IMG/VR virus record: IMGVR_UViG_3300021378_000010
Location: 1-64,000 of that record
Reading direction: 5' to 3' (one strand)
DNA length: 64,000 bases
From: a virus
Shown here: positions 345 through 61,276 of the stretch, in pieces
Layout: each line of letters starts with the position of its first letter
Position numbering within the stretch: the first letter of the stretch is position 1
The notes under the pieces: generated by a model
Told to the model about the DNA's origin: nothing
Databases searched by the model: none
Seen by the model: only the letters and a program-made list of their open reading frames with translations
Translations under genes and position numbers: made by a program

Positions 345-352
345 TATTTATA
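345..352 (-). promoter_or_regulatory. T4-type late promoter TATAAATA
   Basis: Exact TATAAATA on the minus strand about 33 nt upstream of the methyltransferase ATG. Confidence 0.7.
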
Positions 353-1709: not shown

Positions 1710-1718
1710 TTTTTATCC

Positions 1719-4471: not shown

Positions 4472-4495
4472 GTTATTCTCTTTTGTTTATATTTA

Positions 4496-5854: not shown

Positions 5855-5886
5855 TCTATTTTAACTCTTTTATTAAGTTTAAACTA

Positions 5887-7260: not shown

Positions 7261-7271
7261 TTATTTTTACC

Positions 7272-8636: not shown

Positions 8637-10039
8637 GGCTCGTTAAATCCTACTATCTGTGATCTTATGCCTATCGTTGCACATGATGTTCCTGCTATTT
8701 GATACCAATCATTAGAACCTAAGTTTAAGCACACTGGAGAAGATCTCAATCCGCTTTCTCCAAATTCTTCTCCAAAAGAATAACTCGCCCAACAACCCCA
8801 ACCCCAAAGGGATCCATCAGTTTTAATTGCGCGGCCGAGTATTATACTGGAGCCGCCGGTATTGGCGTAACACCAATTTGTAGAAGATGATATTTCTTGC
8901 ACAGGAGAAGACGTGGTTGCTCCTACTCCACTATTACTACCGTTTGCTAGTCCACCAAACTGACCCCATCCCCAGGCCCATAAAGTTCCGTCAGTTTTTA
9001 TAGAAAAACTGTTGCAGCATCCCGTAGAAACTAAGCACCAACTTGAACTTGATGAAATTTCTTGAACAGGGGAAGAATGATTGATTATTGTTTCGTTGCC
9101 AACTTGACCGCAATTATTCAAACCCCAACCCCACAGAGTGCCATCAGTTTTTATGGCTATAGCATGAGAAACTGAAGCATCTACATCAACCCAAGACGAA
9201 CTGGATATTTCTTGTACAGGAGATGAATAACACGTAATTGCGTTTGTTCCAGCTTTTCCACAAAAATTAGATCCTCCTACCCATAACGAACTATCTGACT
9301 TTATTCCGTATACTGTCACATTACCATTACCGATTTTTACTTTTGACCAAGAGGAAGACGTATACTCCTGAATTGGAGAACACGATCCGGTGCCGAATTG
9401 ACAAGCATTAATCAATTGCTGTCCTATAGAATTTATTCCCCAGCTCCAAAGAGATCCATCAGATTTGATTGCAGCTGTGTGACTAGATTCTCTGTCTAAG
9501 AAACACCAATCGGTAGAAGAACACATTTCCTGTACTGGTGAAGAATAAGTTATACCATATGTAGTTCCATCACCGTGTGTAGCAAATATCGCGCCAGATC
9601 CCCAACTCCAAACTGTACCATTATTTTTAATCGCGGCAATAAAGTTTCCTCCACCGGCAATTTGAGACCATTGCGAGTTGGTTGACTCTCTTACTATAGT
9701 TGAATATGTTTGAGACGCGTCTACGTTACCGGTTGCTAACTGTCCAAAATTATTTGCACCAACACCCCATATGTTATTTTCGATTCTACAAGTGGTATTA
9801 TAACTATTCGTCCATTCAGTTCCATTCGAGTAACGATAAGCACCAATGTCTGTTACATATACCCATCTTCCGGTATTTTCGGCAACATCGGGCAGTAGAG
9901 CGGTGCATGCAACACTAAACGTATCTCCGGCTTCTATACTCGTAATAGCGCCTGCCATCTGAGCGAGTTCTTGATCTGTAGGACTCGTTGCTAGACAGCA
10001 GGCGATATAATCCGTGATACTTTTGGTGCTTACCGGCAT
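8633..10039 (-). CDS. RCC1-like beta-propeller repeat protein, class A N-terminus
   Basis: RCC1 repeats; MPVST...NTGRWVYVTDIGAYRYSNG; ends GFNEP. Confidence 0.85.
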   Translation of the reverse strand: MPVSTKSITDYIACCLATSPTDQELAQMAGAITSIEAGDTFSVACTALLPDVAENTGRWVYVTDIGAYRYSNGTEWTNSYNTTCRIENNIWGVGANNFGQLATGNVDASQTYSTIVRESTNSQWSQIAGGGNFIAAIKNNGTVWSWGSGAIFATHGDGTTYGITYSSPVQEMCSSTDWCFLDRESSHTAAIKSDGSLWSWGINSIGQQLINACQFGTGSCSPIQEYTSSSWSKVKIGNGNVTVYGIKSDSSLWVGGSNFCGKAGTNAITCYSSPVQEISSSSWVDVDASVSHAIAIKTDGTLWGWGLNNCGQVGNETIINHSSPVQEISSSSSWCLVSTGCCNSFSIKTDGTLWAWGWGQFGGLANGSNSGVGATTSSPVQEISSSTNWCYANTGGSSIILGRAIKTDGSLWGWGCWASYSFGEEFGESGLRSSPVCLNLGSNDWYQIAGTSCATIGIRSQIVGFNEP

Positions 10040-10045
10040 AAAGTA

Positions 10046-10702
10046 TTACTCCGGTAATTCTGGTTCTGGCTCGGGCGGAACAATTTCTACTACATTAAGC
10101 TCTGCGAGAGTCGTGCATGCATCGATCTCTGTCGCCTTTGCTGCTTCCCAGTCAAACTGCGCTTGAATGTATGCTGCACCCGCAGCAACTACAGATCCAA
10201 GCTCAGACTTCGTGAGATTAAGCCAACCCTCTGGAAACTTCCAGTTAATCGTCTCACCATCAGCCATGATCGAGTACTTCTGAATGAACACGTTGCGGCC
10301 GTCACGAGAAGTGTCTAGAGAAACCGTGGTGCCCTTGAGCTCCATCGTGGTACCTACTACTTCACGGCGATAACGTTCTGCCGCAGCCTCGTTTTTAAGG
10401 TCTGATTTTACAAACTCGATCTCTTTGTCCTTGACACGAAACGTACCGAGAGCAACATCATTATCAAATGTCCAGAACGGACCGTATGTTCTCTCGATAC
10501 GAGTGTTGTGTTCCGGTGTCTCGTAACGAGCAGGCATGATCTTCGTGTCTACGTCGTAGACGATCGGTAGCTTATCAGCATCGGGTGCCAGTCTTGGAAC
10601 GTGACCCGATACTTTGATTCTTGCGAGAGCACCCTCAAATAGGCCGCGGTTCCATTTCATCGGACCTACGAGTACTCTCTCCTTATGAACTAGTGCGTAC
10701 AT
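10046..10702 (-). CDS. Tail-fibre-associated/assembly protein (DUF4376-like C-terminal domain)
   Basis: C-terminal AAAERYRREV-x-G...DT-x-R...WK...W-x-x-L...L-x-x-V...Q-x-x-F-x-WE...I-x-A-x-x-T-x-x-EL pattern typical of DUF4376 fibre-associated proteins. Has its own RBS and late promoter. Confidence 0.6.
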   Translation of the reverse strand: MYALVHKERVLVGPMKWNRGLFEGALARIKVSGHVPRLAPDADKLPIVYDVDTKIMPARYETPEHNTRIERTYGPFWTFDNDVALGTFRVKDKEIEFVKSDLKNEAAAERYRREVVGTTMELKGTTVSLDTSRDGRNVFIQKYSIMADGETINWKFPEGWLNLTKSELGSVVAAGAAYIQAQFDWEAAKATEIDACTTLAELNVVEIVPPEPEPELPE

Positions 10703-10726
10703 TTGAGTTTAACTCCTTTTTGTTTC

Positions 10727-10734
10727 TATTTATA
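10727..10734 (-). promoter_or_regulatory. T4-type late promoter TATAAATA
   Basis: Exact motif 25 nt upstream of ATG 10702. Confidence 0.7.
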
Positions 10735-10740
10735 TTCATA

Positions 10741-12090
10741 TTAAAGACTAAATTGTTGAATACCAATTGCATTACAACACGCCCCGGCATCGACACAAAT
10801 CCAGCTTGTACTTGAAGATACTTCTTGCACTGGAGAAGAATAATATAAGGTGCCATATAGCGCAAGATTTCCTTTGGAATTAAATCCCCAACTCCAAAGA
10901 GTACCATCTGTTTTAACACCAAAACCACTGTAATCGTTTCCACAAACATCACACCAATTTGTACTTGAAGATACTTCTTGAACTGGCGAAGAATGATTTA
11001 CGCAAGTTGGAGTTATCAGCTGTCCATATATAGCCGAACCTCCAGACCAAAGAGTACCATCAGTTTTTATTCCAAAAACAGCAATAGATGAAACATTTAC
11101 TTTACACCAATTAGAACTTGAAGATACTTCTTGAACTGGCGAAGAATAAGCTACGTATACAGTATTTTGCCATTGCGAAGTAGAGCCCCAAGTCCACAAA
11201 GTTCCGTCTGTTTTTATACCAGCAGAAGAATCGCGATTTGTACTAGCAAAACACCAATTAGAACTTGAAGACACTTCTTGAACTGGTGATGAATAAGCTA
11301 TTGTACTATTTACTCCAAGCGAACCAACTCCATTTTGGCCAAACCCCCAAAGTGTTCCATTATTTTTAAGACCCAATACGGAAAAAGATAAAAGCATAGA
11401 ACTAAAAATACAACACCAATCTGTACCAGCAGTAATTTCTTGAGTGGGTCCAGATTTATTTAAAGTATCGTTTGTTGCTATATTACCAAACGAATTTCTA
11501 CCCCAACCCCAAAGAGTACCATCGTTTTTAATTGCCGAGGTTGAATTTGCTCCTATATCTAAATAACACCAATTTGTACTTGAACAAGCTTCTTGAACCG
11601 GTGATGAAACCATATAAGTAGCAAGTGTGCAATTTATCCCAAGCTGGTAATATGAGCTATTGCACGCCCAATTCCAAAGAGTGCCATTAGTTTTTATTCC
11701 GCCGGCTGTGTTGAGACCGAGAGATACAGATATCCAATTACTTGCAGATACTTCTTGTACTGGAGATGAGTAGCAAATGATATCATTTGTACCAAGTACT
11801 CCACATTTATTATAACCCCAACCATATAACTTATTTAAAACTTGTGTCTGAAGAGTGATCCAACCGTTTGCAGCGTTCGCCCAGTAAACTGTCTTCTCGT
11901 CCTGTACATAGTAGAGATGACCTACCGATTCTGAAGCAGTAGGAAGACTTGCAAAAGTGTCAACGACCTGAACGATGCCAGTCTTAAGCTCTGTCAGCAT
12001 CTTTGAATACTCGAGCAGCTCCAACTCAGTCGAGGAGCTGTTCATTTTATCGAGTATTGCTTGTTCTATATTGTGTACGTTGATACTCAT
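10741..12090 (-). CDS. RCC1-like beta-propeller repeat protein, class B N-terminus
   Basis: RCC1 repeats; MSINVHNIE...ELELLEYSKML...TFASLP...GHLYYV. ATGA overlap with the upstream gene. Confidence 0.85.
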   Translation of the reverse strand: MSINVHNIEQAILDKMNSSSTELELLEYSKMLTELKTGIVQVVDTFASLPTASESVGHLYYVQDEKTVYWANAANGWITLQTQVLNKLYGWGYNKCGVLGTNDIICYSSPVQEVSASNWISVSLGLNTAGGIKTNGTLWNWACNSSYYQLGINCTLATYMVSSPVQEACSSTNWCYLDIGANSTSAIKNDGTLWGWGRNSFGNIATNDTLNKSGPTQEITAGTDWCCIFSSMLLSFSVLGLKNNGTLWGFGQNGVGSLGVNSTIAYSSPVQEVSSSSNWCFASTNRDSSAGIKTDGTLWTWGSTSQWQNTVYVAYSSPVQEVSSSSNWCKVNVSSIAVFGIKTDGTLWSGGSAIYGQLITPTCVNHSSPVQEVSSSTNWCDVCGNDYSGFGVKTDGTLWSWGFNSKGNLALYGTLYYSSPVQEVSSSTSWICVDAGACCNAIGIQQFSL

Positions 12091-13433
12091 GGTTCGTTGA
12101 AACCTTTTATAGTTTGTTTAATACTCGAAATAAACGACGATCCTATGCCTACTTGGTACCAATTTGTTGAAGATGTGATTTCTTGAACCGGTGAGGATCT
12201 ATCAATGGTAGTTCCATCGCCGATCTGTCCAGCAACATTCCACCCCCACGCTAATAATTGCCCAGACGTCTTCACCGCAGCTGTGTTTACGGCATAAGCA
12301 CATACTTGGCACCAGTCAGTTGAAGATGTGATTTCTTGAACTGGCGAAGAATAGCATAACCCGTTTCCAGTTCCAGTACGTCCAAGGTTACCGCTACCCC
12401 ATACCCATAATGTGTTATCTGTTTTTAACGCAGCAGAATGTTGTTCTGCCGCACTCGATTGACACCAATCGGTTGAAGATGTGATTTCTTGAACTGGCGA
12501 AGAATAGCATAATGTGTCTCCAGTTCCTATTGCTCCTGGAATATTTCTACCCCAGCCCCAGAGAGTACCATCTGTTTTTATGGCTAAAGTATGATATTGG
12601 CTTGCGCTTACTTGAGACCAATCTGTCGAAGACGATATTTCGCGAACTGGAGAAGATTTATTAATGATAGTTTCATCACCGATCTGCCCAGCTGCGTTGC
12701 ATCCCCACAACCACACTTGTCCAGTAGTTTTTACCGCTACCGTAAATTCACCTCCTGCGGCTTGACACCAATCAATTGAAGATGTAAGTTCTTGAATTAG
12801 AGTACAATTATTTATGCTAGCTGCGCCATTTCCAATTTGACCACCATTACCAAGGCCAGACGACCAAAGAGTACCGTCGGTTTTTATAGCAGCAGTATGG
12901 TTTGTTCCTGGTGCTATGTAACACCAAGTTGCATCGGAAAAATATTCTTGTACAGGAGAGGAAAAATTCGAAATACTATTATTGCCAAGACGGCCTTGCG
13001 CACCGCATCCCCATCCCCAAAGAGTGCCGTCGGTTTTTATGGCTAATACATGTCTATCCCCTGTACCTAATTGACTCCAATCGCCTGAAGTGATTTCTTG
13101 AATTGGAGAAGAACTTCTTACTGTTGCACCGTTTCCTATTGTTCCAATGTCGCCGAAACCCCAACTAAATATTGGCGTTTTTGCTATAGTACATGTGCTA
13201 TCATAACTGTTAGTCCACTCTTCACCATCTGAATAACGATAAGCACCAATGTCTTCAACAAATATCATACGACCCTTGTTACACGAAGCAACCGGTAGCA
13301 CTGAAGTGCTCGCAACGGAATAGACTGTGTTTGAAGACTTCACTCCGCTCACTTGAGCTAGGTTCAACTCTGACGGAGAACCTGCTAAACAGCTATTAGA
13401 TTGATTGATTAAGCACTTTGTGCTAATTGGCAT
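12087..13433 (-). CDS. RCC1-like beta-propeller repeat protein, class A N-terminus
   Basis: RCC1 repeats; MPIST...NKGRMIFVEDIGAYRYSDG; ends GFNEP. Confidence 0.85.
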   Translation of the reverse strand: MPISTKCLINQSNSCLAGSPSELNLAQVSGVKSSNTVYSVASTSVLPVASCNKGRMIFVEDIGAYRYSDGEEWTNSYDSTCTIAKTPIFSWGFGDIGTIGNGATVRSSSPIQEITSGDWSQLGTGDRHVLAIKTDGTLWGWGCGAQGRLGNNSISNFSSPVQEYFSDATWCYIAPGTNHTAAIKTDGTLWSSGLGNGGQIGNGAASINNCTLIQELTSSIDWCQAAGGEFTVAVKTTGQVWLWGCNAAGQIGDETIINKSSPVREISSSTDWSQVSASQYHTLAIKTDGTLWGWGRNIPGAIGTGDTLCYSSPVQEITSSTDWCQSSAAEQHSAALKTDNTLWVWGSGNLGRTGTGNGLCYSSPVQEITSSTDWCQVCAYAVNTAAVKTSGQLLAWGWNVAGQIGDGTTIDRSSPVQEITSSTNWYQVGIGSSFISSIKQTIKGFNEP

Positions 13434-48204: not shown

Positions 48205-48612
48205 TCAGTTCTTTTTGTCTCCACCCACATTGAGTTTTGAATGTACGGTTTTGATTTGTTCAGAAGATAATGCCTTGAAATAAAGCTTTGCTACAGTGCG
48301 ATTACAAGAATACACTTGTTGAATAGCGTCTAGATCTTTATCTTTTTCAGCTTTGTGCCATTTTGAAAATCGTTTACGCGATCTAAGAACGCCTCTATAA
48401 TAGTCAAACTGCGCTCGAGGAAATAAGTGAGCTCTTTGGTTCATTTCATTTGCATGTAAGATGGTGTCGTCGTAATAAGAAAAACCGCGATTGATAATAT
48501 AAGCAACGTATTCCTTTTCAGTCATTAAAGGATGATCTGAATTGCCAATCAAATCTTCTTTACTGTGAGAAGCTGCGTTGATAAAGTCAAACGGTGAATG
48601 TTCTTTTGTCAA
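48205..48612 (-). CDS. Clamp loader small subunit gp62
   Basis: PFDFIN...Y-x-x-YIINR-x-FSY-x-x-DTI-x-x-ANEMN...QFDY...RKRFSKW-x-K. Probable TTG start at 48612 after GGAG. Confidence 0.88.
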   Translation of the reverse strand: MTKEHSPFDFINAASHSKEDLIGNSDHPLMTEKEYVAYIINRGFSYYDDTILHANEMNQRAHLFPRAQFDYYRGVLRSRKRFSKWHKAEKDKDLDAIQQVYSCNRTVAKLYFKALSSEQIKTVHSKLNVGGDKKN

Positions 48613-48778
48613 TATTTTTCTCCGCAAATTGTGCAAGTTTATCGAACTCTAAAGCGCATGATGGGCACGCATGCGTTTTATGTGTGCCCTCAGCGGTGTT
48701 CATATTTATTGTATACGCAGTTTTCTTTTTTGTCAACTTTTCACAGAAGACACATTTCACTTTAGACTTGAATATCAT
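48587..48778 (-). CDS. Small CxxC...CxxC (Zn-ribbon-like) protein
   Basis: CVFC and CPSC pairs; sits between gp44 and gp62. Confidence 0.55.
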   Translation of the reverse strand: MIFKSKVKCVFCEKLTKKKTAYTINMNTAEGTHKTHACPSCALEFDKLAQFAEKNIDKRTFTV

Positions 48779-49731
48779 TATCGGTAGCTGCACTCGATCA
48801 TAATTTCAGTAAGAAAAGCTACAAGATTGATTTCAGGATCTGCAACAAAGTTTGCCTTATACATGTAATCAGCGAGAGTAACTACAAATCCTGGCATGCT
48901 TTTCATTTCAACGCGATCGATTGCTGCATCATAAATTGCACGAAACATTTCATTCGTGTCTTGATCGCTATTTCCAGCAACCCATTTGCGCATTTCAGTA
49001 AAGTTTTTTGCCTTAAGCAATTCAAAAACGTGATCGATGCTTTCCTGTTTCAGATTTACGAAAATGCCTTCATCGATCTTACCAGAAGCAGCATAGGATT
49101 GAAGTTCTGTAAGCACACGCCGAAAGTCAGGAAAGTGTCGCTCAATTACCTTCGCAACAACCTTTTGATCAAAGTCAACTTCTTCTTGCTTGAGAATAGC
49201 AACGATGCGCTTGAAGAATTGAGCTGCAAGTTTTGGCTTGTCATTATTCTCAATCGAAAAGTCAACCTCAGAAAGTCGAGAACGAAGCGGTTCAATCAGC
49301 CGGTTTTTGTAGTTGCACGTAAAAATAAAGCCACAGTTTTTAGAATATTCTTCGATAAAGTTACGAAGAGCTGGTTGAACATTTGCCGCATTCAAGTAAT
49401 CTGCTTCATCAAAGATTACATATTTGCGGCCACCAGAAAACGAAACTGCAGAAGCAAAACTTGAGATTTCGTATCGAAGTGTATCGATGCCAACATTCAA
49501 CGAACCGTTTTTGATAATATAATCGCAACCGAGTTCTTCAAGCATAGCTTTTGCAATAGTAGTTTTACCCACGCCAGGGCCGCCAGTAAGAAGCAAGTTT
49601 GGAACACTGCCGTCCGAAACGTATTTCTTAAAGGTATCTTTTGTACGCTGAGGAAGAATAGCGTCCTCGATTACTCGAGGACGATACTTTTCTACCCACA
49701 ATACTTCGTCATTTTTGCAGTCAATAGTCAT
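48778..49731 (-). CDS. Clamp loader large subunit gp44 (AAA+)
   Basis: LWVEKYRP, GPGVGKTT, DEAD, Q-x-ALR-x-FIEE, PL-x-SR and PDFRR. Confidence 0.96.
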   Translation of the reverse strand: MTIDCKNDEVLWVEKYRPRVIEDAILPQRTKDTFKKYVSDGSVPNLLLTGGPGVGKTTIAKAMLEELGCDYIIKNGSLNVGIDTLRYEISSFASAVSFSGGRKYVIFDEADYLNAANVQPALRNFIEEYSKNCGFIFTCNYKNRLIEPLRSRLSEVDFSIENNDKPKLAAQFFKRIVAILKQEEVDFDQKVVAKVIERHFPDFRRVLTELQSYAASGKIDEGIFVNLKQESIDHVFELLKAKNFTEMRKWVAGNSDQDTNEMFRAIYDAAIDRVEMKSMPGFVVTLADYMYKANFVADPEINLVAFLTEIMIECSYR

Positions 49732-49977: not shown

Positions 49978-50643
49978 TTATTCGCCTTTCTGATATGTGG
50001 ATTTAGTATCGATGCCTACAAAGTAAGTGACGTCGTCGCTTTTAAACTCGGAAATACCTTTAGCACAGAGAGTCACGTGGTAGTCACCGGGAAGAAGTTT
50101 TAGATTATCTGTTTTGATAATGATGGTAAATTTGTCGTTCGTTTCACCAATCTCTACACCAAATGTATCAGCAGTTGGATTGGCGCTATCTACCGCACGA
50201 AGGAAGCACTTTCCATCTTCGCCAACGAAAGCAATTTCGCTAAACTGAAGAACACCAGCAGCCTTGAGAACCGACTGCATGTCTTCCCAGGATACATCGA
50301 TTTCAACGTCGTTTGAAGGGATTTTGATTTCTTTATTGGGCGGTGTATGAATCATAGATACATCTGCAAAAACATATTTGGTCTTACGGCGACCTTCAGA
50401 AATTGTAAAGAACTTATCATGAAATTCGACGTCAGGGTTTTGATAAAGACCTACGATCGAAAGGAAACGCGAAAGATCATAAATGCAAGCATCAGATGGA
50501 ATTTCATCTGGAATATTAGCAATTGCAACAAGAGTCTTTTCAGGCGTAATTGTTTTGAGTACATTGCCTTCTGACATCAAAATAGATTTATTGATTGAAG
50601 AGAAGCTTTTGAGGATGGTAAGAGTACGATCAGAAAATTTCAT
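49978..50643 (-). CDS. Sliding clamp gp45
   Basis: MKFS-x-x-T-x-x-ILK-x-F-x-x-IN-x-SI...A-x-I...IYDL-x-x-FL...NLKLLPGDY-x-V. Synteny 45-44-62-regA. Confidence 0.93.
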   Translation of the reverse strand: MKFSDRTLTILKSFSSINKSILMSEGNVLKTITPEKTLVAIANIPDEIPSDACIYDLSRFLSIVGLYQNPDVEFHDKFFTISEGRRKTKYVFADVSMIHTPPNKEIKIPSNDVEIDVSWEDMQSVLKAAGVLQFSEIAFVGEDGKCFLRAVDSANPTADTFGVEIGETNDKFTIIIKTDNLKLLPGDYHVTLCAKGISEFKSDDVTYFVGIDTKSTYQKGE

Positions 50644-50666
50644 AGTGTATAACACTCCTTTTGTGG

Positions 50667-51811: not shown

Positions 51812-52429
51812 CTATAAGTCGTTTTCAATACGAACAATTTTTTGCATTCTCAAGACATCAGCTAAAACATCCCAAGCGCTGTCGTGTTCAACAAATACCT
51901 TTGCCCAATGCGCTTCGTCATCTACTGGAATAAAGCCATTCTTTTTTGGAAAATCGAGTTTAGCATCGATGTAAGTTCGAATGTCTCGCACTTTCCAATG
52001 AGGAAAATATTGCTTGAACATTTCATTTTTTCCTTCAGCAGCAAAAATACGGTCAAGGATTACTGGATCAAACGTATTTGATCGAGACCACCAGTAATCA
52101 ATTTTTCCAAAATCGTTAAGATAAGAAACAAGTTGAGTGATGAATTCCTTTACTGTAAGATCGTCTTTTCTAGGAACAATATTTTTTCGTGCATCGCTTG
52201 GCAAAGACTGCCACCACTCTACAGTATCTTTATATACCACCCAGTCGTAATTGTCAACCTGATTTTTCACTGAAAGCTTAAATTTTTTCACGAGTGATAT
52301 ATCTTCAGCCGAATAAGGTTTGTTTGAAACAAACTTTTCAGTATCTACTACGATAAATGAAAAGTCAACTACTGCGCAATTTTGTGCAGGCTGTCCGAGA
52401 GTTTCGCAGTCAATAAAACAATGCTTCAT
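51812..52429 (-). CDS. DEDD 3'-5' exonuclease (DexA-like)
   Basis: IDCETLG, W-x-R-x-x-x-FD, RDIRT and H-D-x-x-x-D. Confidence 0.82.
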   Translation of the reverse strand: MKHCFIDCETLGQPAQNCAVVDFSFIVVDTEKFVSNKPYSAEDISLVKKFKLSVKNQVDNYDWVVYKDTVEWWQSLPSDARKNIVPRKDDLTVKEFITQLVSYLNDFGKIDYWWSRSNTFDPVILDRIFAAEGKNEMFKQYFPHWKVRDIRTYIDAKLDFPKKNGFIPVDDEAHWAKVFVEHDSAWDVLADVLRMQKIVRIENDL

Positions 52430-53652
52430 GTCATAAAATCCGTCAAATCTGTGTTACTTTCTTTTTCTCTGATTGCACCATTGAGATTGCTTTGAATCAT
52501 GTATGATGCACGTTCCATTGGTCGTTCTCCATTGATCGTAGCAAGTACTTCAGTCGCCATGTCTTTCGCAGTTTTGAATGGAACATTTTGACAAATATGG
52601 TTTATGTTCTTTCTTTCGTCAAGAAGTTCATAATCTTGAGGAAGACCCATAATCGTCATTGCTTCTCGAAAGTTGATATAGCGATCTTCGAGATGGTGTG
52701 TTACTACGAAAGGCATGTGTACTACAAACGCACCGATGTGATCTACTGGAATTAGCGTTCCGCGCATCATTACACCTTTACCACTTGTCAACTTTGCATG
52801 TCGACGATCGCACCGATCTGCTTCTCTATCAAGACCTTGCGATCTCATCCACTTACCGACTTGATCATAATTAATACCTTGTTCGAGCATCTCTCCTTCA
52901 ACATTATATGAAGGTCTTGTATGATCTTTTACAGAAGCAGCAAAGTCAACGTGACTCATACCACCTTTAATCTCAGTGAGATAAAAACGATAGTATGGAT
53001 CGTCTTGAGAAGGAATTTTTTTATTGATTGGCTCGACTTGAAAGTTACTCTTTACGCTTTCAAGCAGTTCACGGATAGTTGGATACTGCGTATTAAACCT
53101 GCTAAAAACTGGAACAGAATTATCAAAAGCGTCTCTACGCCAGAAGAAGTAAAATGTTCTACGACGGATCTGAGGAGAACCATGAAGAAGAGATTTAGTC
53201 ACATAAATTGTCATATTGTATCCAGCTGCATCACTAATCTGACGCAACTTGTCTCGCATAAATTTACCGACATTAGTAGCAAGTGCAGGTGCGTTTTCAC
53301 CCCAAAGAACTTTTGGACGAACGTTTTCTAAAACGTGCCGTGTAGTCTTTTCCATCCATTGGTTATTTTGATTGTGTTCTCCATAACTTTTATGATAAGA
53401 ACTAAGTCCTGCGCAAGGACATACTGAAGAAACTACGTCTACTGATTCTGTCGTAATTGGCGCATTCTCGCTATCAAGTACATGATAAGGAATGTCATAG
53501 CCGTCCTTTCTGTAATGGTTCAATAGATGCTGTTCGTTTGACGCGAATGCACCATAGCTCATAATATATTCTGGCTTTACGCCATACGCTTCATCTGAAG
53601 CAAGTAGTTCACCGCCAATAAGCGGCACAATTCCTGCATGTTTTATTGTCAT
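52426..53652 (-). CDS. DNA cytosine-C5 methyltransferase-fold protein with degenerate SAM-binding motif I
   Basis: Motif IV CPCAGLS, VI GENAP, VIII HGSPQIRRRTFY, IX REAMTIMGLP, X CQNVP. Motif I reads IVPLIGG instead of FxGxGG. Confidence 0.8.
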   Translation of the reverse strand: MTIKHAGIVPLIGGELLASDEAYGVKPEYIMSYGAFASNEQHLLNHYRKDGYDIPYHVLDSENAPITTESVDVVSSVCPCAGLSSYHKSYGEHNQNNQWMEKTTRHVLENVRPKVLWGENAPALATNVGKFMRDKLRQISDAAGYNMTIYVTKSLLHGSPQIRRRTFYFFWRRDAFDNSVPVFSRFNTQYPTIRELLESVKSNFQVEPINKKIPSQDDPYYRFYLTEIKGGMSHVDFAASVKDHTRPSYNVEGEMLEQGINYDQVGKWMRSQGLDREADRCDRRHAKLTSGKGVMMRGTLIPVDHIGAFVVHMPFVVTHHLEDRYINFREAMTIMGLPQDYELLDERKNINHICQNVPFKTAKDMATEVLATINGERPMERASYMIQSNLNGAIREKESNTDLTDFMT

Positions 53653-53666
53653 TTTTCATCCTTTAA

Positions 53667-54692
53667 TCAAGCGAAGAAATTTTCGATGCTCATAATTTGT
53701 TTTTCAACACCCGTCCAATGCGGGTAATGTTCTCTTGAAAGGTGTATGGATCTTGGTTTTTCCATATAGGCAAAATCAAGTTCATCACGATCATTGAGTA
53801 GATAATCTGTCCATCGGATTATGCTATATTTATATTCGATGTAATCATTGAAATGATCGCGAACTTTTTTTCGCTCTGACCACGATCCCCAGAAAGGTTT
53901 TCCATCATAATAACCAGTTTTAGGAACTACACGGCTCTCGTTTTCAATTGGAAGCAGTTCATAAATCTTTGCTCCAAGTTCACGAGCTTGTTCAATATAA
54001 CGATCTGCAAGAGCTTCGGCATTTTTGATCAAATCACCTTCAAGACGGCAGAGATGATGACGAACATCAATATTGCCAAAATAAAACTCAAGTTCTTCAA
54101 CAGCATCTATGTCAACAAAAGACTTAAGACCCTGGTTGAGTGCTCCATTCAAAGTCTTGAATACAGTAGAATTGAAAGACCAACCGGGTCTATACATACA
54201 GATCGCATGACTGTCACCAATCACAAGTTTTTTTGTAGGATTGACGTGATTTACTTTTACGGCTTCACGTTCCATCCTACCCCAGTTGTCAATGTCGAGC
54301 TCATGCCAAATAGGTTCAATGTAGATATTATTTTTCTTTGCGAGTTCAAATTTACGACGGAGTAGTCGTTCATACTCAGGAAAGTCGCAATTCAAACTAT
54401 AAATTGGACCTTTATACTTTGATACCTTTACGACATTTTCTGAATATGGACAGTTTTGAAAGCCACCAAAAATATTCATTGCCGCTGGCTTTGTTCTAGA
54501 AGTTCCGTTATCTGCATGGTACATATAAACAGCATCGTACTCGTTGAGATCTTTGATTCTTCCTTCAAAATCAACTTCAGCATCATGACCAAGTTCTTTC
54601 AGCTGATTGCAGTAAATAACTGCTGGTGATGTTCTGTGCGAGTATACTAAACTCGTGAGAGTATTAGTTGGTGAAACGACTGCAATTTTCAT
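53667..54692 (-). CDS. Beta-glucosyltransferase N-domain-like + SGNH hydrolase/acyltransferase fusion
   Basis: N-half MKIAVV...DLNEYD...NIFGG...KYKGPIYSLNCD resembles the T4 BGT N-domain as recalled. C-half has IGDSH (block I), FGNID (block III) and SIHLS (block V). Confidence 0.55.
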   Translation of the reverse strand: MKIAVVSPTNTLTSLVYSHRTSPAVIYCNQLKELGHDAEVDFEGRIKDLNEYDAVYMYHADNGTSRTKPAAMNIFGGFQNCPYSENVVKVSKYKGPIYSLNCDFPEYERLLRRKFELAKKNNIYIEPIWHELDIDNWGRMEREAVKVNHVNPTKKLVIGDSHAICMYRPGWSFNSTVFKTLNGALNQGLKSFVDIDAVEELEFYFGNIDVRHHLCRLEGDLIKNAEALADRYIEQARELGAKIYELLPIENESRVVPKTGYYDGKPFWGSWSERKKVRDHFNDYIEYKYSIIRWTDYLLNDRDELDFAYMEKPRSIHLSREHYPHWTGVEKQIMSIENFFA

Positions 54693-54704
54693 AATATAAA
54701 TCTC

Positions 54705-55796
54705 CTAGCAAAAAAAGCTGTCAACCGTAGTGCAGCTGAGTCTTGACTCAAGGTCAAGAGCAATTTTATCAAAAGCATCAAACGTAAGAGGCAAAATGCG
54801 TTTTTCTTGAAGCTTTGGTGTATCTTTGATACCAAGAAAACAGTTGAACTGGCAAAATGTAATTTCTGCGCCAAAGGTAGTCATATGGCCATTACGTTCA
54901 AGGTTTTCTGAGTAAAATTTTCTTGCAGTATCATCAGGAAACTCAAAAAAATCATATTGATGACTACGAACTGACATTACGATCTTTTCCATAATATCAT
55001 TTTTATTTAGCTTAACGTTTGGAAATACGAAAGCCATACCACGATGGGCGCCAGGACCGACCAGACAATAGTCATCATCTTCATCAATATTTGGAAGATC
55101 TTCGCACCGAGAAAAGTTACAAGGTGGATGGTAAGAAAAATAAGGTCCAATACCGCGATGAGTTTTTAGCCATTCGCAGACATCGCCAAGAGAGTTTTTA
55201 GGATCTTGTACGACATCGCTCATTCCTAGCTTATCAAGTTGATCCATCCAACGAATCATATGCGATAGTTTGAATTGAACTGTAGGATCATCTTCTTCTT
55301 CACGAACAAAGTTTCGAGCCGCGGTCTGAAGCGAAGTCTGAAGCTGAGTAGCACCCCAAACCTTAAGCTTGCGAATATTATCGTCTAGGTTTCTGTTTAC
55401 AGTTTGATAATAATCACCTTTGAGTCGATATTCATCGAAGTCAATAATCTTAGAATAATCTGCAGTATCTGAAGCTACAAGAGTAAGCGTAGGCATGCCA
55501 ACAAATTTTACCGCCATTGCATTTAGAATTTTGTTACGCATTGAGGTATCTTGACCAAAGACATGATTCTCTAGCCAAAATACCTCAGCGTGTTTAGAAC
55601 GGTTTGGATTCCAATACGAAACTTCTTGACGCATCGCAGATCCAAATTCAGGATCAATCTCATATTCTTCAATCCTGCCGGTTTCACGGAGAGTTTCACG
55701 CTTGAAGAAATCCAAGACCCATTTATTGAAATATTTGAATGCATCTGGATCAGCAATAGACTTGAGTTCGTCTACAGTAAAGATTTCTTTTTTCAT
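54705..55796 (-). CDS. aGPT-Pplase / amino-acid:DNA transferase-like base-modifying enzyme (HhH glycosylase fold)
   Basis: KRE...Y-x-N-x-x-R, HhH motif LKTHRGIGPYFSY, VGPGAHRGM, and E-x-x-x-CQF. Confidence 0.7.
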   Translation of the reverse strand: MKKEIFTVDELKSIADPDAFKYFNKWVLDFFKRETLRETGRIEEYEIDPEFGSAMRQEVSYWNPNRSKHAEVFWLENHVFGQDTSMRNKILNAMAVKFVGMPTLTLVASDTADYSKIIDFDEYRLKGDYYQTVNRNLDDNIRKLKVWGATQLQTSLQTAARNFVREEEDDPTVQFKLSHMIRWMDQLDKLGMSDVVQDPKNSLGDVCEWLKTHRGIGPYFSYHPPCNFSRCEDLPNIDEDDDYCLVGPGAHRGMAFVFPNVKLNKNDIMEKIVMSVRSHQYDFFEFPDDTARKFYSENLERNGHMTTFGAEITFCQFNCFLGIKDTPKLQEKRILPLTFDAFDKIALDLESRLSCTTVDSFFC

Positions 55797-55799
55797 ATT

Positions 55800-56183
55800 T
55801 TATTTCTCCGTTAAGTCATGTTGTAGCATGACTATATTTATGCTAGGCATAATCTTCCGAATTTCTTCTGCTTGAATAGGATCATCTTCAAAGTGAATAC
55901 CAAAACGATATCCCATTTCTTCAAGATAAAACAGTGTACGACCTTTATGCTGCCCAGATGATTTACGAGTTTTTTCGTCAAATTTCAGTGGGTTCATGTA
56001 TACTGTATTATAGATTCCACGATTTGTCAACATATTTTTTGTAACTTCGCCTTCATCATCACGAGAACGTCCAGTAATGATTACGTCGTCGGGCCCGGGA
56101 AAGACGCCCGTAAAGGCGTCTCCCATGTAAATAACTCCATCAATATCAAAAGAATTGATAACTTTGTTAGGAATATCATTCAT
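55800..56183 (-). CDS. HAD-superfamily phosphatase (cap-less)
   Basis: FDIDGV (DxD), ITGRS, K and FEDD motifs I-IV. Start ATG 56183 overlaps the MIPS stop by 8 nt. Confidence 0.8.
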   Translation of the reverse strand: MNDIPNKVINSFDIDGVIYMGDAFTGVFPGPDDVIITGRSRDDEGEVTKNMLTNRGIYNTVYMNPLKFDEKTRKSSGQHKGRTLFYLEEMGYRFGIHFEDDPIQAEEIRKIMPSINIVMLQHDLTEK

Positions 56184-57471
56184 AGTCTGTCTTCCCATCT
56201 TGGTATGTGTAAGGAAGATTTTTTGCAATTGGCTTTTCAGCAGCAAGCTGTGGTCGGGTCATTGAAGTAAGTTCACGGCGAGCAAGCGCATCGCATTCAA
56301 ACTTTGCATCAGATGAAGAAAGTTGTACAGGCGGCGTCTTCTGCGTATACGCGCTAGGCCCACGAAGAATTCCAACAATACCCATTTCAGAAGCTACTCG
56401 ACAGAAGCGAACGGCAGAAATAACTACACCACTCGAGTTTGGCGAGTCCTGGCAAGAAAGTCGAGCTTGAAGTGTATAACGAGCACCACCAAAGCCAAAC
56501 GCTACGATGTCAAGATCTGCAATTTTATTATCAGAACCAACATACGTTCCACCAGGCTTCTGAAGAACTGTCAACGAAGGACCTGCATAAAGTGTGTCAC
56601 CAGCATAGCTTACACCACGAACGGTATTTTGACCCTTGAGAACGTTTTCCTTTGAAATATGTTTATTATGAAGACGTTCTTTTTCAGCCATATTGATGAA
56701 GTCAGTATTTGAAGTAACACCAGAACGAATATGTTCTTTACCCTGAGTAGCACCACCGATGCGATTTGTTTGAGTATGATATGTTACATGCAGGCCGCCG
56801 TCAATCATCGCACCTTGTAGAACTTCAGACAAGCGGGATGCACCCCAAGCAGATCGCATATCAGAACCAACAAAAGTAAGACCAGCATCGATAAAGCGCT
56901 GCTCAATTTTCTGAGTTTCTTTAGTATCAATAATTGTTGGAATACAGTTTACGAAGTGTACTCCAGCTTTCAAAGCAACATCGATATAGAAACGAGTTGC
57001 TTTTTCAGAACCAACAGGAAGATAATTGACAAGGACTTCAACTCCGGTCTTTTTTACCAATTCAACAATATCATCAAATGATTTTGCAGCTTCAGCACCA
57101 GTTCTGAACGAAACTTCTTCAGGATAGTATTCCATCCATTCTGCAACACCATCGAGTGTCGGGCTAGAGTAAACCATTGCGCCCTTCGTAACTGCGCCTG
57201 GAGAATTACCACCAGTTTCAAGAATCTCCGCAACGTGATCCATAGCACAGTTTGGTGAAGCACGAAGAGCTTCTACAAGAGGCTTGTTAACCTTACGGCG
57301 ATCTACATCAAATCCAATGACGAACTCGACGTCACCCGAAACATATCCGCCAATTTCTGGATACATCAGGCCAACTTTATCATTCGGGTTTTCATTATAG
57401 TATTGCACACCCTCTACGATAGATTTAGCGCAGTTACCCACACCAATAATACCAATTTTGATCTTTTTCAT
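56176..57471 (-). CDS. ino1: myo-Inositol-1-phosphate synthase
   Basis: GVGNCAKS, FDVD-x-x-KV, LVNYLPVGSE, FVNCIP, GSDMRS-x-x-GA, NTDF-x-NM, K-x-ISK, DNK, DSPNS-x-GV and K-x-PP, as in the bacterial/archaeal MIPS family. Confidence 0.92.
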   Translation of the reverse strand: MKKIKIGIIGVGNCAKSIVEGVQYYNENPNDKVGLMYPEIGGYVSGDVEFVIGFDVDRRKVNKPLVEALRASPNCAMDHVAEILETGGNSPGAVTKGAMVYSSPTLDGVAEWMEYYPEEVSFRTGAEAAKSFDDIVELVKKTGVEVLVNYLPVGSEKATRFYIDVALKAGVHFVNCIPTIIDTKETQKIEQRFIDAGLTFVGSDMRSAWGASRLSEVLQGAMIDGGLHVTYHTQTNRIGGATQGKEHIRSGVTSNTDFINMAEKERLHNKHISKENVLKGQNTVRGVSYAGDTLYAGPSLTVLQKPGGTYVGSDNKIADLDIVAFGFGGARYTLQARLSCQDSPNSSGVVISAVRFCRVASEMGIVGILRGPSAYTQKTPPVQLSSSDAKFECDALARRELTSMTRPQLAAEKPIAKNLPYTYQDGKTDYE

Positions 57472-57589
57472 TTGATTTTCCTTTTCTGTTATATCAGTTT
57501 AACGACTATATTTGGCCGGAAGGTCCGGGGTAGGTCGAGTGCAATCCAGCACTAAGGTTACCATCAGTCTAGATGGTGTTGTATTTATA
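57472..57589 (-). promoter_or_regulatory. Late promoter and structured 5' leader of the MIPS operon
   Basis: TATAAATA at 57582-57589, followed by hairpins ACCATC/GATGGT, AGTGC/GCACT and CGAC..CCGG/CCGG..GTCG before the AAGGA RBS. Confidence 0.5.
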
Positions 57590-57596
57590 GCCGAAC

Positions 57597-58682
57597 TCAA
57601 GCAAACATATCAAAAATTGTAGTTTCTTTGGTATTTTTTTGTCTGTCAATTGTTTGCTCAAACATATTCTGCAAAGACTTAATCCAATTTTCTTTTGAGT
57701 GCTTTTGTTTTGTGAGTTCAGATATTGCTATACGTTCATTATAATCCAAAGCCAGTAATTTGTCAACAACTTCTTTAAATGCAGCAGGACGAATATTTGA
57801 ACGAACTTTTGCAAGATGTTCTGGTTTTGCTGGAATACATTCAGAAGCGTGAGTATCTTTCGTATCAGTTGCTAATACTACAGGAACGCCTCGTGCAAGT
57901 GCTTCCAAAGCGGTAATACCCCAAGTTTCTGCAGGACATGTCGAAAAATAAACACGAGAACGAGCAAGCTTTTCCATGACATCTTTATGAGGAAGATTTT
58001 CAATTGTGTCCTGTGGATGTTTCCAGTGTTGATTAATATTGTAGTAATGTTTATTGGTAGCATCAACAAGGTTACTTGTTGTAGTCAGAATCAAACTGTG
58101 ATAGTTGTTTGAATGAGATAACTTGTGGTTCATATAAGGATTTTTGATTCTATTCATTCGTGCAATAGTCGTGATGTCATATTCCAGATCTTTGTATACT
58201 GGTTCATCACCATTACAAAACGCAGCGTTGATAAATCCGCCATTTAAATTAAGAGGGCATTCGTTGATACGCTGCGAAAGCTTATCCATGCCTTGAAATT
58301 GCCATGGGCTTACCATTGCAAGAGTACCACCCGTATCAATAAATTCTTTCATTTTTTCAATATGAAGAACTTTGCTAATTCCACCGGCAGCGGTATGACT
58401 AACCCATAAAATGGGAATGTTAAATACTTTTCGTATATTTCCAATTAGCGTATTACTATCGAAGTTTACCATCAGTACATCAGGATCATGCTGAATGATA
58501 GCTTGAGAAAGTTTTGTAGTTGTTCTACGCTTTTTGCGATCTTCTTCATTATAATAAAATGGAATCACTTCGCCAGGAAAATTCTGATAGATCAGTTGAA
58601 TAAAACGCTCAATGCCACCAGAAACGTGTGGACTGTCAAGATCATGCTCGTCAGTCATAAAAAATGGAATTAGTACTTTCAT
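57597..58682 (-). CDS. GT-B (GT4-like) glycosyltransferase
   Basis: SGGIERF at the N-terminus, AR-x-x-x-x-KN, and ETWGITALEALARGVPVV (E-x7-E motif). Confidence 0.85.
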   Translation of the reverse strand: MKVLIPFFMTDEHDLDSPHVSGGIERFIQLIYQNFPGEVIPFYYNEEDRKKRRTTTKLSQAIIQHDPDVLMVNFDSNTLIGNIRKVFNIPILWVSHTAAGGISKVLHIEKMKEFIDTGGTLAMVSPWQFQGMDKLSQRINECPLNLNGGFINAAFCNGDEPVYKDLEYDITTIARMNRIKNPYMNHKLSHSNNYHSLILTTTSNLVDATNKHYYNINQHWKHPQDTIENLPHKDVMEKLARSRVYFSTCPAETWGITALEALARGVPVVLATDTKDTHASECIPAKPEHLAKVRSNIRPAAFKEVVDKLLALDYNERIAISELTKQKHSKENWIKSLQNMFEQTIDRQKNTKETTIFDMFA

Positions 58683-59326
58683 ATTTTTACCTCATAATGT
58701 AACCGCCAATCTTCATATTCCTCGTCAAGAGTAACCCATTGGCATTTTGTATTTGTATGATTTGCTTCTTTGTTCCAAACTATCCAGCAATAAGCAATCA
58801 TGCCACCAATTTGGTCATTCTTATTTATGGGTTCTATATGATCGGCACTAAATTTTACTCTGTCTGACATGAATATTATATCACTTGGAGGGTTATTTGT
58901 AAACAATTTTTTTCTCTTTTTTCCTTCGAGAAAAGTAATACGAACAAACATTGCAACAAAATCATATTCATTGACAGCTTTTTCTGCTATTTTTCGAGGA
59001 AGATCTTGATGATATGGCGGATTTGTTACCAGGCCTTTTGCGTCAGAAGGTTTCTGAAGACTCATAAAGTCTGTATCAACAGTTATTGCGCATAGGCTAT
59101 TATCATACTCGTGAAGATCATAAGAACGAACATCATAACCGTGACGAAGCAGCTCAATAGATATGTTACCACGTCCAGCACAAGGCTCAACGATAACATG
59201 AGGTAGATTGACATATTTTTGTAAAACATAAGTTGCGAGTGGTGGTGTTGGATAAAAATCATTTTTTCTGCGGTTTGTATCTGTTTTTTTTACACCAACG
59301 TAAATATCTTTGAGATTATTGGCCAT
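58679..59326 (-). CDS. Amino (N6-A/N4-C) DNA methyltransferase-like protein
   Basis: DFYPTP, EPCAGRG, D-x-DF and TNPPY. Probable start ATG 59326. Confidence 0.75.
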   Translation of the reverse strand: MANNLKDIYVGVKKTDTNRRKNDFYPTPPLATYVLQKYVNLPHVIVEPCAGRGNISIELLRHGYDVRSYDLHEYDNSLCAITVDTDFMSLQKPSDAKGLVTNPPYHQDLPRKIAEKAVNEYDFVAMFVRITFLEGKKRKKLFTNNPPSDIIFMSDRVKFSADHIEPINKNDQIGGMIAYCWIVWNKEANHTNTKCQWVTLDEEYEDWRLHYEVKI

Positions 59327-60152
59327 ATCTAATATTTTGTTCCTTTTCACGATCGTCTAGTTTATACTCAGATCTATAACGAGAGTTAACGCTAATAACT
59401 TCTTCAAGTACAGAAAGATATACACCATTGAGTTTTGAAAAGGCAGAAATCGCGGCAGTATCCTTTGGAAAACAGCTTCCTCCAAAACCTCTTTTTCCGT
59501 CGGGTCCTGGAACCTTTGTGTGAGAATGTCCAATACGATCATCTTCTCCTATGGATCTAGAAACAACATTATATCGAGCATCGAGTGATTCTGTAAGTTC
59601 TTTCCATTGATTAAACCAAACAACTTTCATTGCAAGAAATGAATTGATCCCATATTTTACAAGACTTGCCTCAACTGGTGTCATGTAATGAAATGGTGCA
59701 GGATTGCAGTTTGAATTATACGTGTAAAGATCTTTTACCTTTTCTATGCGATGGATGTCTCCGCCAAGTACATGAAAATCTGGTTTCAAAAAATCTTCTA
59801 ACGCGTTTCTTTCTGTGAGAAATTCTGGGTTGTATACAAAATGATTATTATAACAAATTTCTTCTATTACGTCTGGTGTAATAGTCGACTTTACGATGAT
59901 TGTTGCATCTATATCACTCAGTTGATCCACAACAGTAGTTATGATATTTTTGTTTATCGAACCATCGTCATTCATCGGTGTTGGCACGCAAACAAATACA
60001 AACTCTGGATTAAAAGAAATCATTTCATCTATATCATGATGGCCCTTATAAGGATCTACAATCATAATGTCGTTGGTTTTGTTACGAAACCCAAATTCTA
60101 CAGCGTTTCCAACAAAGCCATAGCCTATAATTGCTATTTTTGTTTTATTCAT
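59316..60152 (-). CDS. UDP-glucose/GDP-mannose dehydrogenase family protein (short, lacks C-terminal domain)
   Basis: IIGYGFVG, FVCVPTP, KSTI-x-P, NPEFL-x-E, K-x-x-x-N-x-FLA-x-KV, D-x-RIG and GFGGSCFPKD. Confidence 0.88.
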   Translation of the reverse strand: MNKTKIAIIGYGFVGNAVEFGFRNKTNDIMIVDPYKGHHDIDEMISFNPEFVFVCVPTPMNDDGSINKNIITTVVDQLSDIDATIIVKSTITPDVIEEICYNNHFVYNPEFLTERNALEDFLKPDFHVLGGDIHRIEKVKDLYTYNSNCNPAPFHYMTPVEASLVKYGINSFLAMKVVWFNQWKELTESLDARYNVVSRSIGEDDRIGHSHTKVPGPDGKRGFGGSCFPKDTAAISAFSKLNGVYLSVLEEVISVNSRYRSEYKLDDREKEQNIRYGQ

Positions 60153-60621
60153 TTTCAAAGGCCCAGTGACGTTCGTTCATGTAAGTAAGCAATACGCCAG
60201 TTTCCTGATACATCGGCTTTGAAAGGTCGTTCCACTGAGTCTGCCACTTCTCAGGAGCATGCTCAGGATGCGTGATCACGACTCGTTTGATACCGGATTG
60301 GACAACATTCTTTGTACACTCAGCACAGACCGGTAGACCCCAAACATAAATCGTCGCATCCTTGACTGATACACCACTGTAGAGCGCATTCATCAATGCG
60401 TTCATCTCACCATGAACGATCAATGGATATTTCTGTTCACGATCGTTAAGACGCTCATCTGTATCTTCAATACCGCGAGGAAACCCGTTGTAGCCAGTCG
60501 CGAGGATGCGACGCTCATCATTTACAATCACTGCTCCGATGCGCGTGCTCGGATCCTTACTCCAGGTCGAGATCTCACGAGCAAGTTTCATAAAGCGGTT
60601 GTCCCACTTGGAGTTAATCAT
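60145..60621 (-). CDS. dCMP deaminase
   Basis: SKDPST-x-IGAVIV, GYNGFPRG, HGE-x-NA and PVCAEC zinc motifs. Confidence 0.92.
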   Translation of the reverse strand: MINSKWDNRFMKLAREISTWSKDPSTRIGAVIVNDERRILATGYNGFPRGIEDTDERLNDREQKYPLIVHGEMNALMNALYSGVSVKDATIYVWGLPVCAECTKNVVQSGIKRVVITHPEHAPEKWQTQWNDLSKPMYQETGVLLTYMNERHWAFENE

Positions 60622-61276
60622 TCATAAGCTCCTCAATGAACTTGAAGTGGCGCTCGTAGACGTGCAAGTTAGTCGCAGTCCAAATTAGATCACCAACCGC
60701 AACATTGAGATCTGCGGCAAGCATCTTTTGAACATGCATCGCCCAATGTACGTCGTTGTCATATCCAAACACAGCATCGTTGGATCGCATTAGGTAGTGA
60801 CTAATGAGCTTACCATCGCGTATCATAAAGGTGTTTGCGTATGTGCAGACGAAGTCAGACATACCATCTGCGCAGTAGTCGGTATGCATAGACGGGCGAT
60901 TGTAGATCATAACGGCACGACGACTGTTCGGGTTCTTCTGCAGCTCAGTCTTTACGTTTTCGTACTGACTGCCGTTTTCTTCTGACCAGATCAGATAGCC
61001 GTAGTTAGAATTGATCATGCCGTTAGAGTCAGATACTTGTTTCCAGATGGCAGGCGTATCACCAGGAATGTCTTCAACGTAACGAGACTGCGACTCATAC
61101 CACTGGAGTTCGCGTTCGATATATTCATAGTTTGGTTTGCGGATGATCCAATCCTCATCAGCAATAAACGACTCACCGATAAGCTCGATGGTCTTAACTC
61201 CGGTCTTATCAGTCACGAAATCCTGTTCTTTGTATTTTTGAATGAGCTTAGCTCGAATATCACTTACTGTTTGCAT
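60614..61276 (-). CDS. dCMP hydroxymethylase (T4 gp42-like, thymidylate synthase fold)
   Basis: Colinear with T4 gp42 as recalled: DKTGVKTIE, RELQWY, DIPG-x-TP-x-IW, INSNYG, SRR-x-x-MIY-x-RPSM, DGMSDF-x-CT, MRSND-x-VFG-x-x-ND and LHVY-x-RHF. The cytosine-specifying Asp (ND) is retained. Confidence 0.9.
   Translation of the reverse strand: MQTVSDIRAKLIQKYKEQDFVTDKTGVKTIELIGESFIADEDWIIRKPNYEYIERELQWYESQSRYVEDIPGDTPAIWKQVSDSNGMINSNYGYLIWSEENGSQYENVKTELQKNPNSRRAVMIYNRPSMHTDYCADGMSDFVCTYANTFMIRDGKLISHYLMRSNDAVFGYDNDVHWAMHVQKMLAADLNVAVGDLIWTATNLHVYERHFKFIEELMND

Follow-up and report, generated by a model that had tools for sequence, protein, structure and literature searches.

Four unrelated enzymes encoded in one DNA-modification cluster of an uncultured T4-like phage share a kind of short C-terminal peptide with gp43, the DNA polymerase of that phage. 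On sequence grounds, these four tails are very probably docking peptides that work as the gp43 C-terminus does, by which the enzymes would hold the sliding clamp gp45 on replicating phage DNA and carry out there the modification steps that take place on the polymer. The cluster lies in the first 64 kb (the window, i.e., the whole stretch analysed here, positions 1 to 64,000) of IMG/VR virus record IMGVR_UViG_3300021378_000010, a viral contig of 100.5 kb with an estimated completeness of 48%. The phage is a deep-branching T4-like virus; judged by gp43, its nearest relatives in culture are T4-like cyanophages, with only 45% identity. The proteins concerned are listed below (aa, amino acids; coordinates are those of the window unless the contig is named).

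52426..53652, minus strand: C5-cytosine-methyltransferase-fold (C5-MTase-fold) enzyme, 408 aa; PF00145 (E 2e-16); tail DLTDFMT (52429-52449), end ...NTDLTDFMT
53667..54692, minus strand: SGNH-like enzyme, 341 aa; PHROG 13881 and PHROG 17781 (N-part); tail SIENFFA (53670-53690), end ...MSIENFFA
54705..55796, minus strand: aGPT-Pplase / 5-hmdU-DNA-kinase-helical-domain-like (aGPT-like) enzyme, 363 aa; PF18723 HMUDK_hel (E 1e-8) and PHROG 17781 (C-part); tail TVDSFFC (54708-54728), end ...TTVDSFFC
57597..58682, minus strand: GT-B (GT4-type) glycosyltransferase, 361 aa; PF00534 group 1; tail TIFDMFA (57600-57620), end ...TTIFDMFA
Contig 64131-66668, minus strand: gp43 DNA polymerase, 845 aa, 131 bases past the window; PHROG 262 (E 2e-299); tail TIEDFFA, end ...NTIEDFFA
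49978-50643, minus strand: gp45 sliding clamp, the proposed docking partner; PF09116; ATG start, alternative GTG start at 50655

A Polymerase-Type Tail on Four Modification Enzymes

The four enzyme endings, pointed out in a first-pass annotation made from the letters alone, are exact in the translations of the minus-strand open reading frames (ORFs), and the family assignments proposed with them hold, as listed above. The SGNH-like enzyme has no Pfam match; the GT-B enzyme also matches PF13692 and PF20706, and neither of the T4 alpha- and beta-glucosyltransferase families (PF11440 and PF09198). The same annotation had called for a comparison with the C-termini of the phage's own gp43, gp55 and gp33, and the outcome is divided: gp55 has no such tail, while gp43 ends in a peptide whose register is identical to that of the four enzymes, with an aliphatic residue at position -6, F or M at both -3 and -2, and a single small residue at -1. 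The peptide is found at the extreme C-terminus, all five proteins stopping one residue past the F/M pair. A cause at the level of DNA, such as overlap with a ribosome-binding site or a shared nucleotide motif, was rejected: the five tails are encoded by differing codons and the downstream ribosome-binding sites are located past the stops, so that the constraint acts on the peptide.

The strict expression [ST][ILVM]x[DNS][FM][FM]x$ is matched by 4 of the 127 ORFs of the contig, namely three of the enzymes and gp43, where shuffles predict 0.005; the looser pattern of the first-pass annotation is matched by five, against 0.04 expected. In the complete relative G001, a loose expression found 3 matches among 307 ORFs where 3.5 were expected, which is not above chance; a position matrix built solely from 12 distinct gp43 tails was therefore used instead to rank all C-termini, a design meant to avoid a post hoc motif. 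Among the 127 ORFs, gp43 itself scored 20.0, followed by the SGNH-like (16.3, second), aGPT-like (13.3, third) and GT-B (7.4, fourth) enzymes, the 95th percentile being -2.0. High scorers other than the enzymes, a 96-aa ORF and a baseplate hub protein discussed below, are false positives.

Conservation of the Tails and Specificity within the Cluster

Resemblance to the cognate polymerase tail and conservation among orthologues had been set beforehand as tests of the docking proposal, and neither speaks against it: the resemblance holds as described above, and the tails are indeed kept in orthologues while the linkers diverge. Every tail is retained in five close relatives (77-82% identity), in which the preceding residues drift. 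An alignment-seeded scan brought together 45 related loci and a census of 871 ORFs, in which the tail is present on 28/28 gp43, 14/15 C5-MTase-fold, 5/5 aGPT-like, 5/5 SGNH-like and 33/44 GT-B proteins. It is found on no member of any other assigned gene family with at least three copies (dCMP deaminase 0/30, exonuclease 0/26, gp46 0/24, gp42 0/24, gp45 0/20, MT223 0/14 and UDP-sugar dehydrogenase, UGDH, 0/5, with none either on MIPS or HAD proteins); the background of the core expression was 17/774 ORFs. A second, independent sample, made of 78 SGNH loci, gave the same division, with tails on 77/78 SGNH-like, 56/57 C5-MTase-fold and 50/55 aGPT-like proteins and on 0/51 HAD and 0/50 MIPS proteins.

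The statement of the first-pass annotation that the metabolic enzymes of the cluster (MIPS, HAD, UDP-sugar dehydrogenase, dCMP deaminase and gp42) end differently is likewise confirmed by their C-termini. Together with one methyltransferase-like ORF, the tail-less products are the following.

55800-56246, minus strand: HAD-like phosphatase, inside the cluster
56176-57471, minus strand: myo-inositol-1-phosphate-synthase-like (MIPS) protein, PF01658, inside the cluster
58679-59350, minus strand: methyltransferase-like ORF
59316-60158, minus strand: UDP-sugar dehydrogenase-like protein
60145-60621, minus strand: dCMP deaminase
60614-61276, minus strand: gp42-like hydroxymethylase

At the level of whole protein families, 105 of the 118 full-length homologues of the C5-MTase-fold protein keep an L-x-x-F-[FMLI] end, with the consensus (S/T/N)LE(A/E)F(L/F), and most aGPT-like homologues match the tail pattern. 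GT-B orthologues keep the end with its aromatic pair down to about 35% identity, the two most distant ones being without it. The information content of the alignment columns is high over the domain, falls across the linker and rises again at the L..FF positions. AlphaFold2 (AF2) models of the GT-B and C5-MTase-fold enzymes are confident as far as the last secondary-structure element, after which confidence drops at the tail: the predicted local distance difference test score (pLDDT) of the GT-B model is 92.7, with a last helix at 330-351 followed by values of 59 and 47 over the tail, and that of the C5-MTase-fold model is 88, with 61 for the final 8 residues.

These observations bear on whether the resemblance could have arisen by chance or as a by-product of structural C-termini or of overlapping downstream signals. 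Loose expressions do have a real background, as G001 illustrates, and some of their matches are false: a baseplate hub protein ending ...MRSFFI (a structural protein that lacks the aliphatic residue at -6), a 96-aa ORF at contig 72975-73265 (...TVLDAEFV, a tail not conserved in G001) and a MazG-like 114-aa ORF ending ...VSIPVFLE were all rejected as clients. However, the excess of the strict motif over the shuffles, conservation across families to about 35% identity behind divergent linkers, the differing codons with ribosome-binding sites past the stops, and the location of the tails outside the confidently folded domains leave this explanation strongly disfavoured, and we regard it as the least probable of those weighed here.

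Several neighbouring observations concern the same gene families. Two tandem GT-B paralogues occur in relatives (L033/L034:8889-11092), both tailed (...NLMSFTQ and ...SLMDFIT). Between the GT-B and C5-MTase-fold genes of two others (L019:11093-12211 and L031:11105-12229) lies an ORF of 372-374 aa with no Pfam match; it is found in relatives without the SGNH, aGPT, HAD and MIPS genes, and its copy in G001 ends ...KELEALFD, which is weakly tail-like. The dCMP deaminase of two close relatives (L008:165-722 and L009:8806-9351) is longer at its C-terminus by 25-30 aa, with the end ...SGMRSF or ...SGIRSIF; the studied phage lacks this extension, which does not resemble a polymerase tail in type.

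Tail Flavour and the Cognate Polymerase

The SGNH-like family, which has 396 representatives, offers a view of how the tails vary with the polymerase. Members above about 41% identity have a linker and an FF-type tail, many distant ones terminate where the conserved domain does, and a third class in viral contigs has a linker of about 27 residues and the conserved end K-T-[IL]-x-[STA]-L-F$. In contigs with this LF class (n = 10), the SGNH-like enzyme ends T[IL]x[STA]LF$ and the split B-family polymerase Y[SA][TS][SA]L[FW]$; in those with the FF class (n = 8), a polymerase ending TLE[DA]FFx is accompanied by an SGNH-like enzyme ending xLE[ED]FFx. The flavour of the SGNH-like tail (FFx versus LF) thus tracks that of the cognate polymerase, register included, in 18/18 contigs, although these form two clades and stand for one or two evolutionary events, not 18.

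A further flavour, FDI, is met in cultured Straboviridae, which brings the number of flavours to at least three (FFx, LF and FDI). The polymerase of Stenotrophomonas phage IME13 ends ...LFDMFDI and its SGNH-like protein ...TLELFDI; that of Aeromonas phage 44RR2.8t also ends ...LFDMFDI, and its SGNH/aGPT fusion protein, which ends ...SLDGLFAI, has one tail only, at its C-terminus. Such fusions of the SGNH-like and aGPT-like parts, of about 800 aa, with a Lys/Pro-rich linker and assigned to PHROG 17781, are seen in 44RR2.8t (ORF233c, L005:6001-8388) and in phage UP87 (L060:2465-4882), and they argue that the two proteins act together. In IME13, a 358-aa hypothetical protein (L059:876-1952) adjoins UDP-galactopyranose mutase, two genes upstream of the tailed SGNH-like gene; its end, ...SCLDLIMA, is possibly another tail.

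Tail-less members of the same families are also informative. With gp44 serving as the probe for T4-type replisomes, the tail-less SGNH-like members were found to sit in two complete genomes, G035 and G037, of 225 kb and 45 kb, in which no gp43-type polymerase, gp44 or gp45 was detected while positive controls gave signal. The C5-MTase-fold homologues of cyanophage S-TIM5 and Bacillus phage G are tail-less as well, and both genomes are without gp45.

A regulatory signal common to the polymerase and the enzymes, i.e., a tag for degradation, localisation or packaging, might also produce shared endings. C-terminal hydrophobic tags can direct proteolysis in bacteria, and a second role of this kind is compatible with the data; as the sole explanation, however, it is very improbable, since it leaves unexplained that the tail flavour tracks the polymerase in three lineages, that the tail is lost together with the T4-type replisome, and that the metabolic enzymes of the same operon are tail-less.

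Comparison with Known Clamp-Binding Peptides

The motifs with which the first-pass annotation compared the tails were quoted correctly: T4 gp43 ends ...EKASLDFLFG, a terminus that binds gp45 (PMC6212786, PMC2988020), and RB69 gp43 ends ...KKASLFDMFDF, the RB69 clamp-peptide structure being 1b8h (polymerase end ...SLFDMFDF). In T4 gp55 and gp33, a divergent unstructured linker is followed by a conserved hydrophobic-acidic epitope (PMC2988020), and the epitopes of gp43, gp55 and gp33 are interchangeable (PMC6212786, PMC2988020). The tails described here share with these epitopes their location at the extreme C-terminus, an aliphatic residue followed by an aromatic pair, a hydrophobic-acidic character and a divergent flexible linker upstream; as in T4 and RB69, a gp45 gene lies close by, and the polymerase shares its peptide with further proteins of its phage. 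They differ in their local flavour ([ST][ILV]x[DNS]FFx compared with LDFLF in T4) and in their carriers, which are base-modification enzymes and not replication or transcription factors; unlike that of T4, the gp55 of the studied phage lacks the epitope. Judged by its sequence, the peptide would be a functional counterpart of the T4/RB69 clamp epitopes, carried by a new class of proteins.

The clamp itself, which the first-pass annotation had placed near the cluster, is well supported: besides its PF09116 match, it aligns over its full length to RB69 gp45 (1b77/1b8h, E 5e-29) and T4 gp45 (1czd), and the gp45 and clamp-loader genes lie 2-4 kb from the modification cluster. By homology with the T4/RB69 polymerase terminus, gp45 is the presumed partner of the tails. 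Docking on another partner (the clamp loader, the single-strand-binding protein, the polymerase or a host protein), to which the polymerase tail would bind too, appears unlikely, if less so than a regulatory signal. What gives it substance is the LF lineage (L156-L235 and L236-L260, the contigs with a split PolB), in which ...T[IL]x[STA]LF$ is common to the SGNH-like enzymes and the C-terminal subunit of the polymerase: a gp44-like clamp loader is present there, yet no clamp was recognised with the phage's own gp45, PF09116 or PF02768 (beta-type). An unannotated ORF beside gp44 in that lineage was rejected as a clamp, being Lys/Glu/Ala-rich and coiled-coil-like. The bacterial beta-clamp-binding motif is Q-phi-x-[LM]-[FL] (QLxLF; PMC11139829), and the LF flavour (...T[IL]x[STA]LF$ in the distant SGNH-like relatives and ...[ST]SLF$ in the polymerases) ends, like it, in x-L-F, a likeness that makes a host clamp conceivable there, although the Gln is missing. 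The LF flavour is, however, absent from the studied phage, whose tails end FFx or FMx and so depart from QLxLF. For the phage itself, the homologous polymerase terminus binds gp45 in T4 and RB69, its own gp45 can be aligned over the whole length of the RB69 clamp, of which a crystal structure includes the polymerase peptide, and its tails fit the T4/RB69 hydrophobic-acidic pattern, all of which argues for gp45. In the LF lineage, an ORF of 325-336 aa beside the N-terminal PolB subunit (L240-L243) ends ...AITEDDLF or ...DEDDLFD, and is a possible further clamp client.

Docking of DNA enzymes on a clamp has precedents of several kinds. T4 DNA ligase has acquired an internal loop, ...GLDFLFD (LDFLF), that binds the hydrophobic pocket of the clamp with a dissociation constant of about 10 uM (PMC6212786). 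This shows that a polymerase-type peptide can be gained independently by another DNA enzyme as a way to reach gp45, as would be the case here; the ligase loop is internal, helical and part of a replication/repair enzyme, whereas the peptides considered here are terminal and sit on modification enzymes. Another precedent is the T4 alpha-glucosyltransferase (alpha-GT), for which an interaction with gp45 was reported by Sommer et al. (2004, BBRC 323:809, as cited in PMC6024577); it was not reproduced in vitro or in vivo with C-terminally His-tagged enzymes (PMC13216743). The idea of a DNA-modifying glycosyltransferase placed on the sliding clamp right after replication is common to both cases, but the evidence here is a conserved, co-varying motif in other enzyme families.

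Outside the phage world, DNMT1 and other PCNA clients use the PIP box, Qxx[ILM]xx[FY][FY]. As in DNMT1-PCNA coupling, a DNA-modifying enzyme would be tethered to a clamp through one aliphatic and two aromatic residues, and new DNA would be modified as it is made. Unlike the PIP box, the tails have no conserved Gln (none of the five has one three residues before the aliphatic position), are strictly terminal, and are viral and directed at a clamp of the gp45 family, so that the likeness is one of analogy and not of homology. No published report of such tails on modification enzymes was found, and the phage hypermodification literature that was checked makes no mention of clamps.

Proposed Mechanism and Points That Weigh against It

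In the mechanism we propose, each of the four enzymes would bear its docking peptide on a short flexible linker and attach through it to gp45 trimers that are loaded on phage DNA undergoing replication. The hypermodification steps on polymer DNA would be performed at, or just behind, the replisome, and on clamp-loaded (phage) DNA only, while the precursor enzymes (MIPS, HAD, the sugar dehydrogenase, dCMP deaminase and gp42) would work in solution and need no tail. The four enzymes would act on DNA, and modification probably takes place on newly replicated phage DNA, with the enzymes held on the clamp. The timing of their action is offered here as speculation, as is an ordered hand-over, or "assembly line", on one clamp trimer.

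A number of findings weigh against this mechanism. The tail of the C5-MTase-fold enzyme is the weakest of the four, with a score of -1.8 and rank 7/127 on the gp43-trained matrix, and its support comes from conservation at the level of the family. The methyltransferase-like ORF at 58679-59350, next to the GT-B gene, is tail-less. A large GT-B subgroup ends ...PVSWFD beside a gp43 ending TLESFFG on the same contigs, so that co-variation is imperfect, and the concordance of the SGNH-like tails reduces to the one or two events mentioned above. In Pseudoalteromonas phage XG4, the C5-MTase homologue is tail-less although the phage encodes a gp45-like clamp and a gp43 with a tail (...SLDDLFM). To these are added the LF lineage with its clamp loader and no recognised clamp, and the fact that the only phage precedent, T4 alpha-GT/gp45, was unreproduced, with neither the T4 alpha-GT (...KEQFDIITK) nor the beta-GT (...DAFKKAIDL) having a polymerase-type tail. 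Finally, the phage's own gp55 late sigma factor (PHROG 234; contig 69502-70017, L003:5502-6017, minus strand) ends ...KKEEKKETE, with no hydrophobic epitope, so that the T4 list of clamp clients is not simply transferable.

The gp55 of the complete relative G001 is likewise without a clamp-binding epitope, and no gp33 was recognised; clamp-activated late transcription may differ in this clade. In a more distant relative (L041), gp55 ends ...GLLEFLSDSD.

Organization of the Locus

Between 47 and 64 kb on the minus strand, the window contains a replication block (dUTPase, regA, gp62, gp44 and gp45), a conserved 299-aa ORF, a 205-aa exonuclease and the modification cluster, composed of the C5-MTase-fold, SGNH-like, aGPT/HMUDK_hel-like, HAD, MIPS and GT-B proteins, the methyltransferase-like ORF, the UDP-sugar dehydrogenase, dCMP deaminase and the gp42-like hydroxymethylase. 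The 299-aa ORF beside gp45 has no tail-type end. The clamp-loader genes are placed as follows.

48778..49731, minus strand: gp44 clamp-loader ATPase, whose orthologues adjoin gp45 in all relatives
48205-48636, minus strand: gp62 clamp loader, next after gp44

Between the C5-MTase-fold gene and the exonuclease gene downstream of it, the stop codon of the former overlaps the start codon of the latter (ATGA, 52426-52429), which suggests translational coupling of the two. Searches against cultured phages gave no match, whether by megablast with the cluster or by tblastn with the GT-B enzyme. Gene calls throughout are heuristic, and many of the contigs compared are fragments. At the other end of the window (348-13433, minus strand), ten tandem paralogous ORFs of about 450 aa and one of 218 aa have C-termini that alternate between ...GFNEP and other endings; they may represent a diversified family of structural or fibre-like proteins.

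Implications for Phage DNA Hypermodification

Phage hypermodification pathways are currently worked out enzyme by enzyme, and their post-replicative steps have to reach all target bases quickly, and on phage DNA only. A conserved, co-varying, polymerase-type tail offers a concrete mechanism after the contested precedent of T4 alpha-GT and gp45, and a viral analogue of the coupling between DNMT1 and PCNA. The tails separate, with no need for biochemistry, a DNA-acting arm of four enzymes from the precursor arm of an uncharacterised cluster linked to inositol and sugars. In practical terms, C-terminal tags would mask the interaction, and the cultured Aeromonas and Stenotrophomonas phages 44RR2.8t and IME13 are tractable models.

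We lean, with distinctly less assurance than for the four tails themselves, towards clamp docking as a general, lineage-tuned rule for post-replicative hypermodification in the T4 superfamily, in which DNA-acting enzymes acquire the peptide of their cognate polymerase. If this rule is true, the loaded phage clamp would be both a processivity factor for modification and the mark that distinguishes phage from host DNA. The tail would then predict, from sequence only, which genes of uncharacterised modification clusters act on DNA, and it would help to find new clamp clients and suggest that the LF lineage has a clamp not yet recognised.

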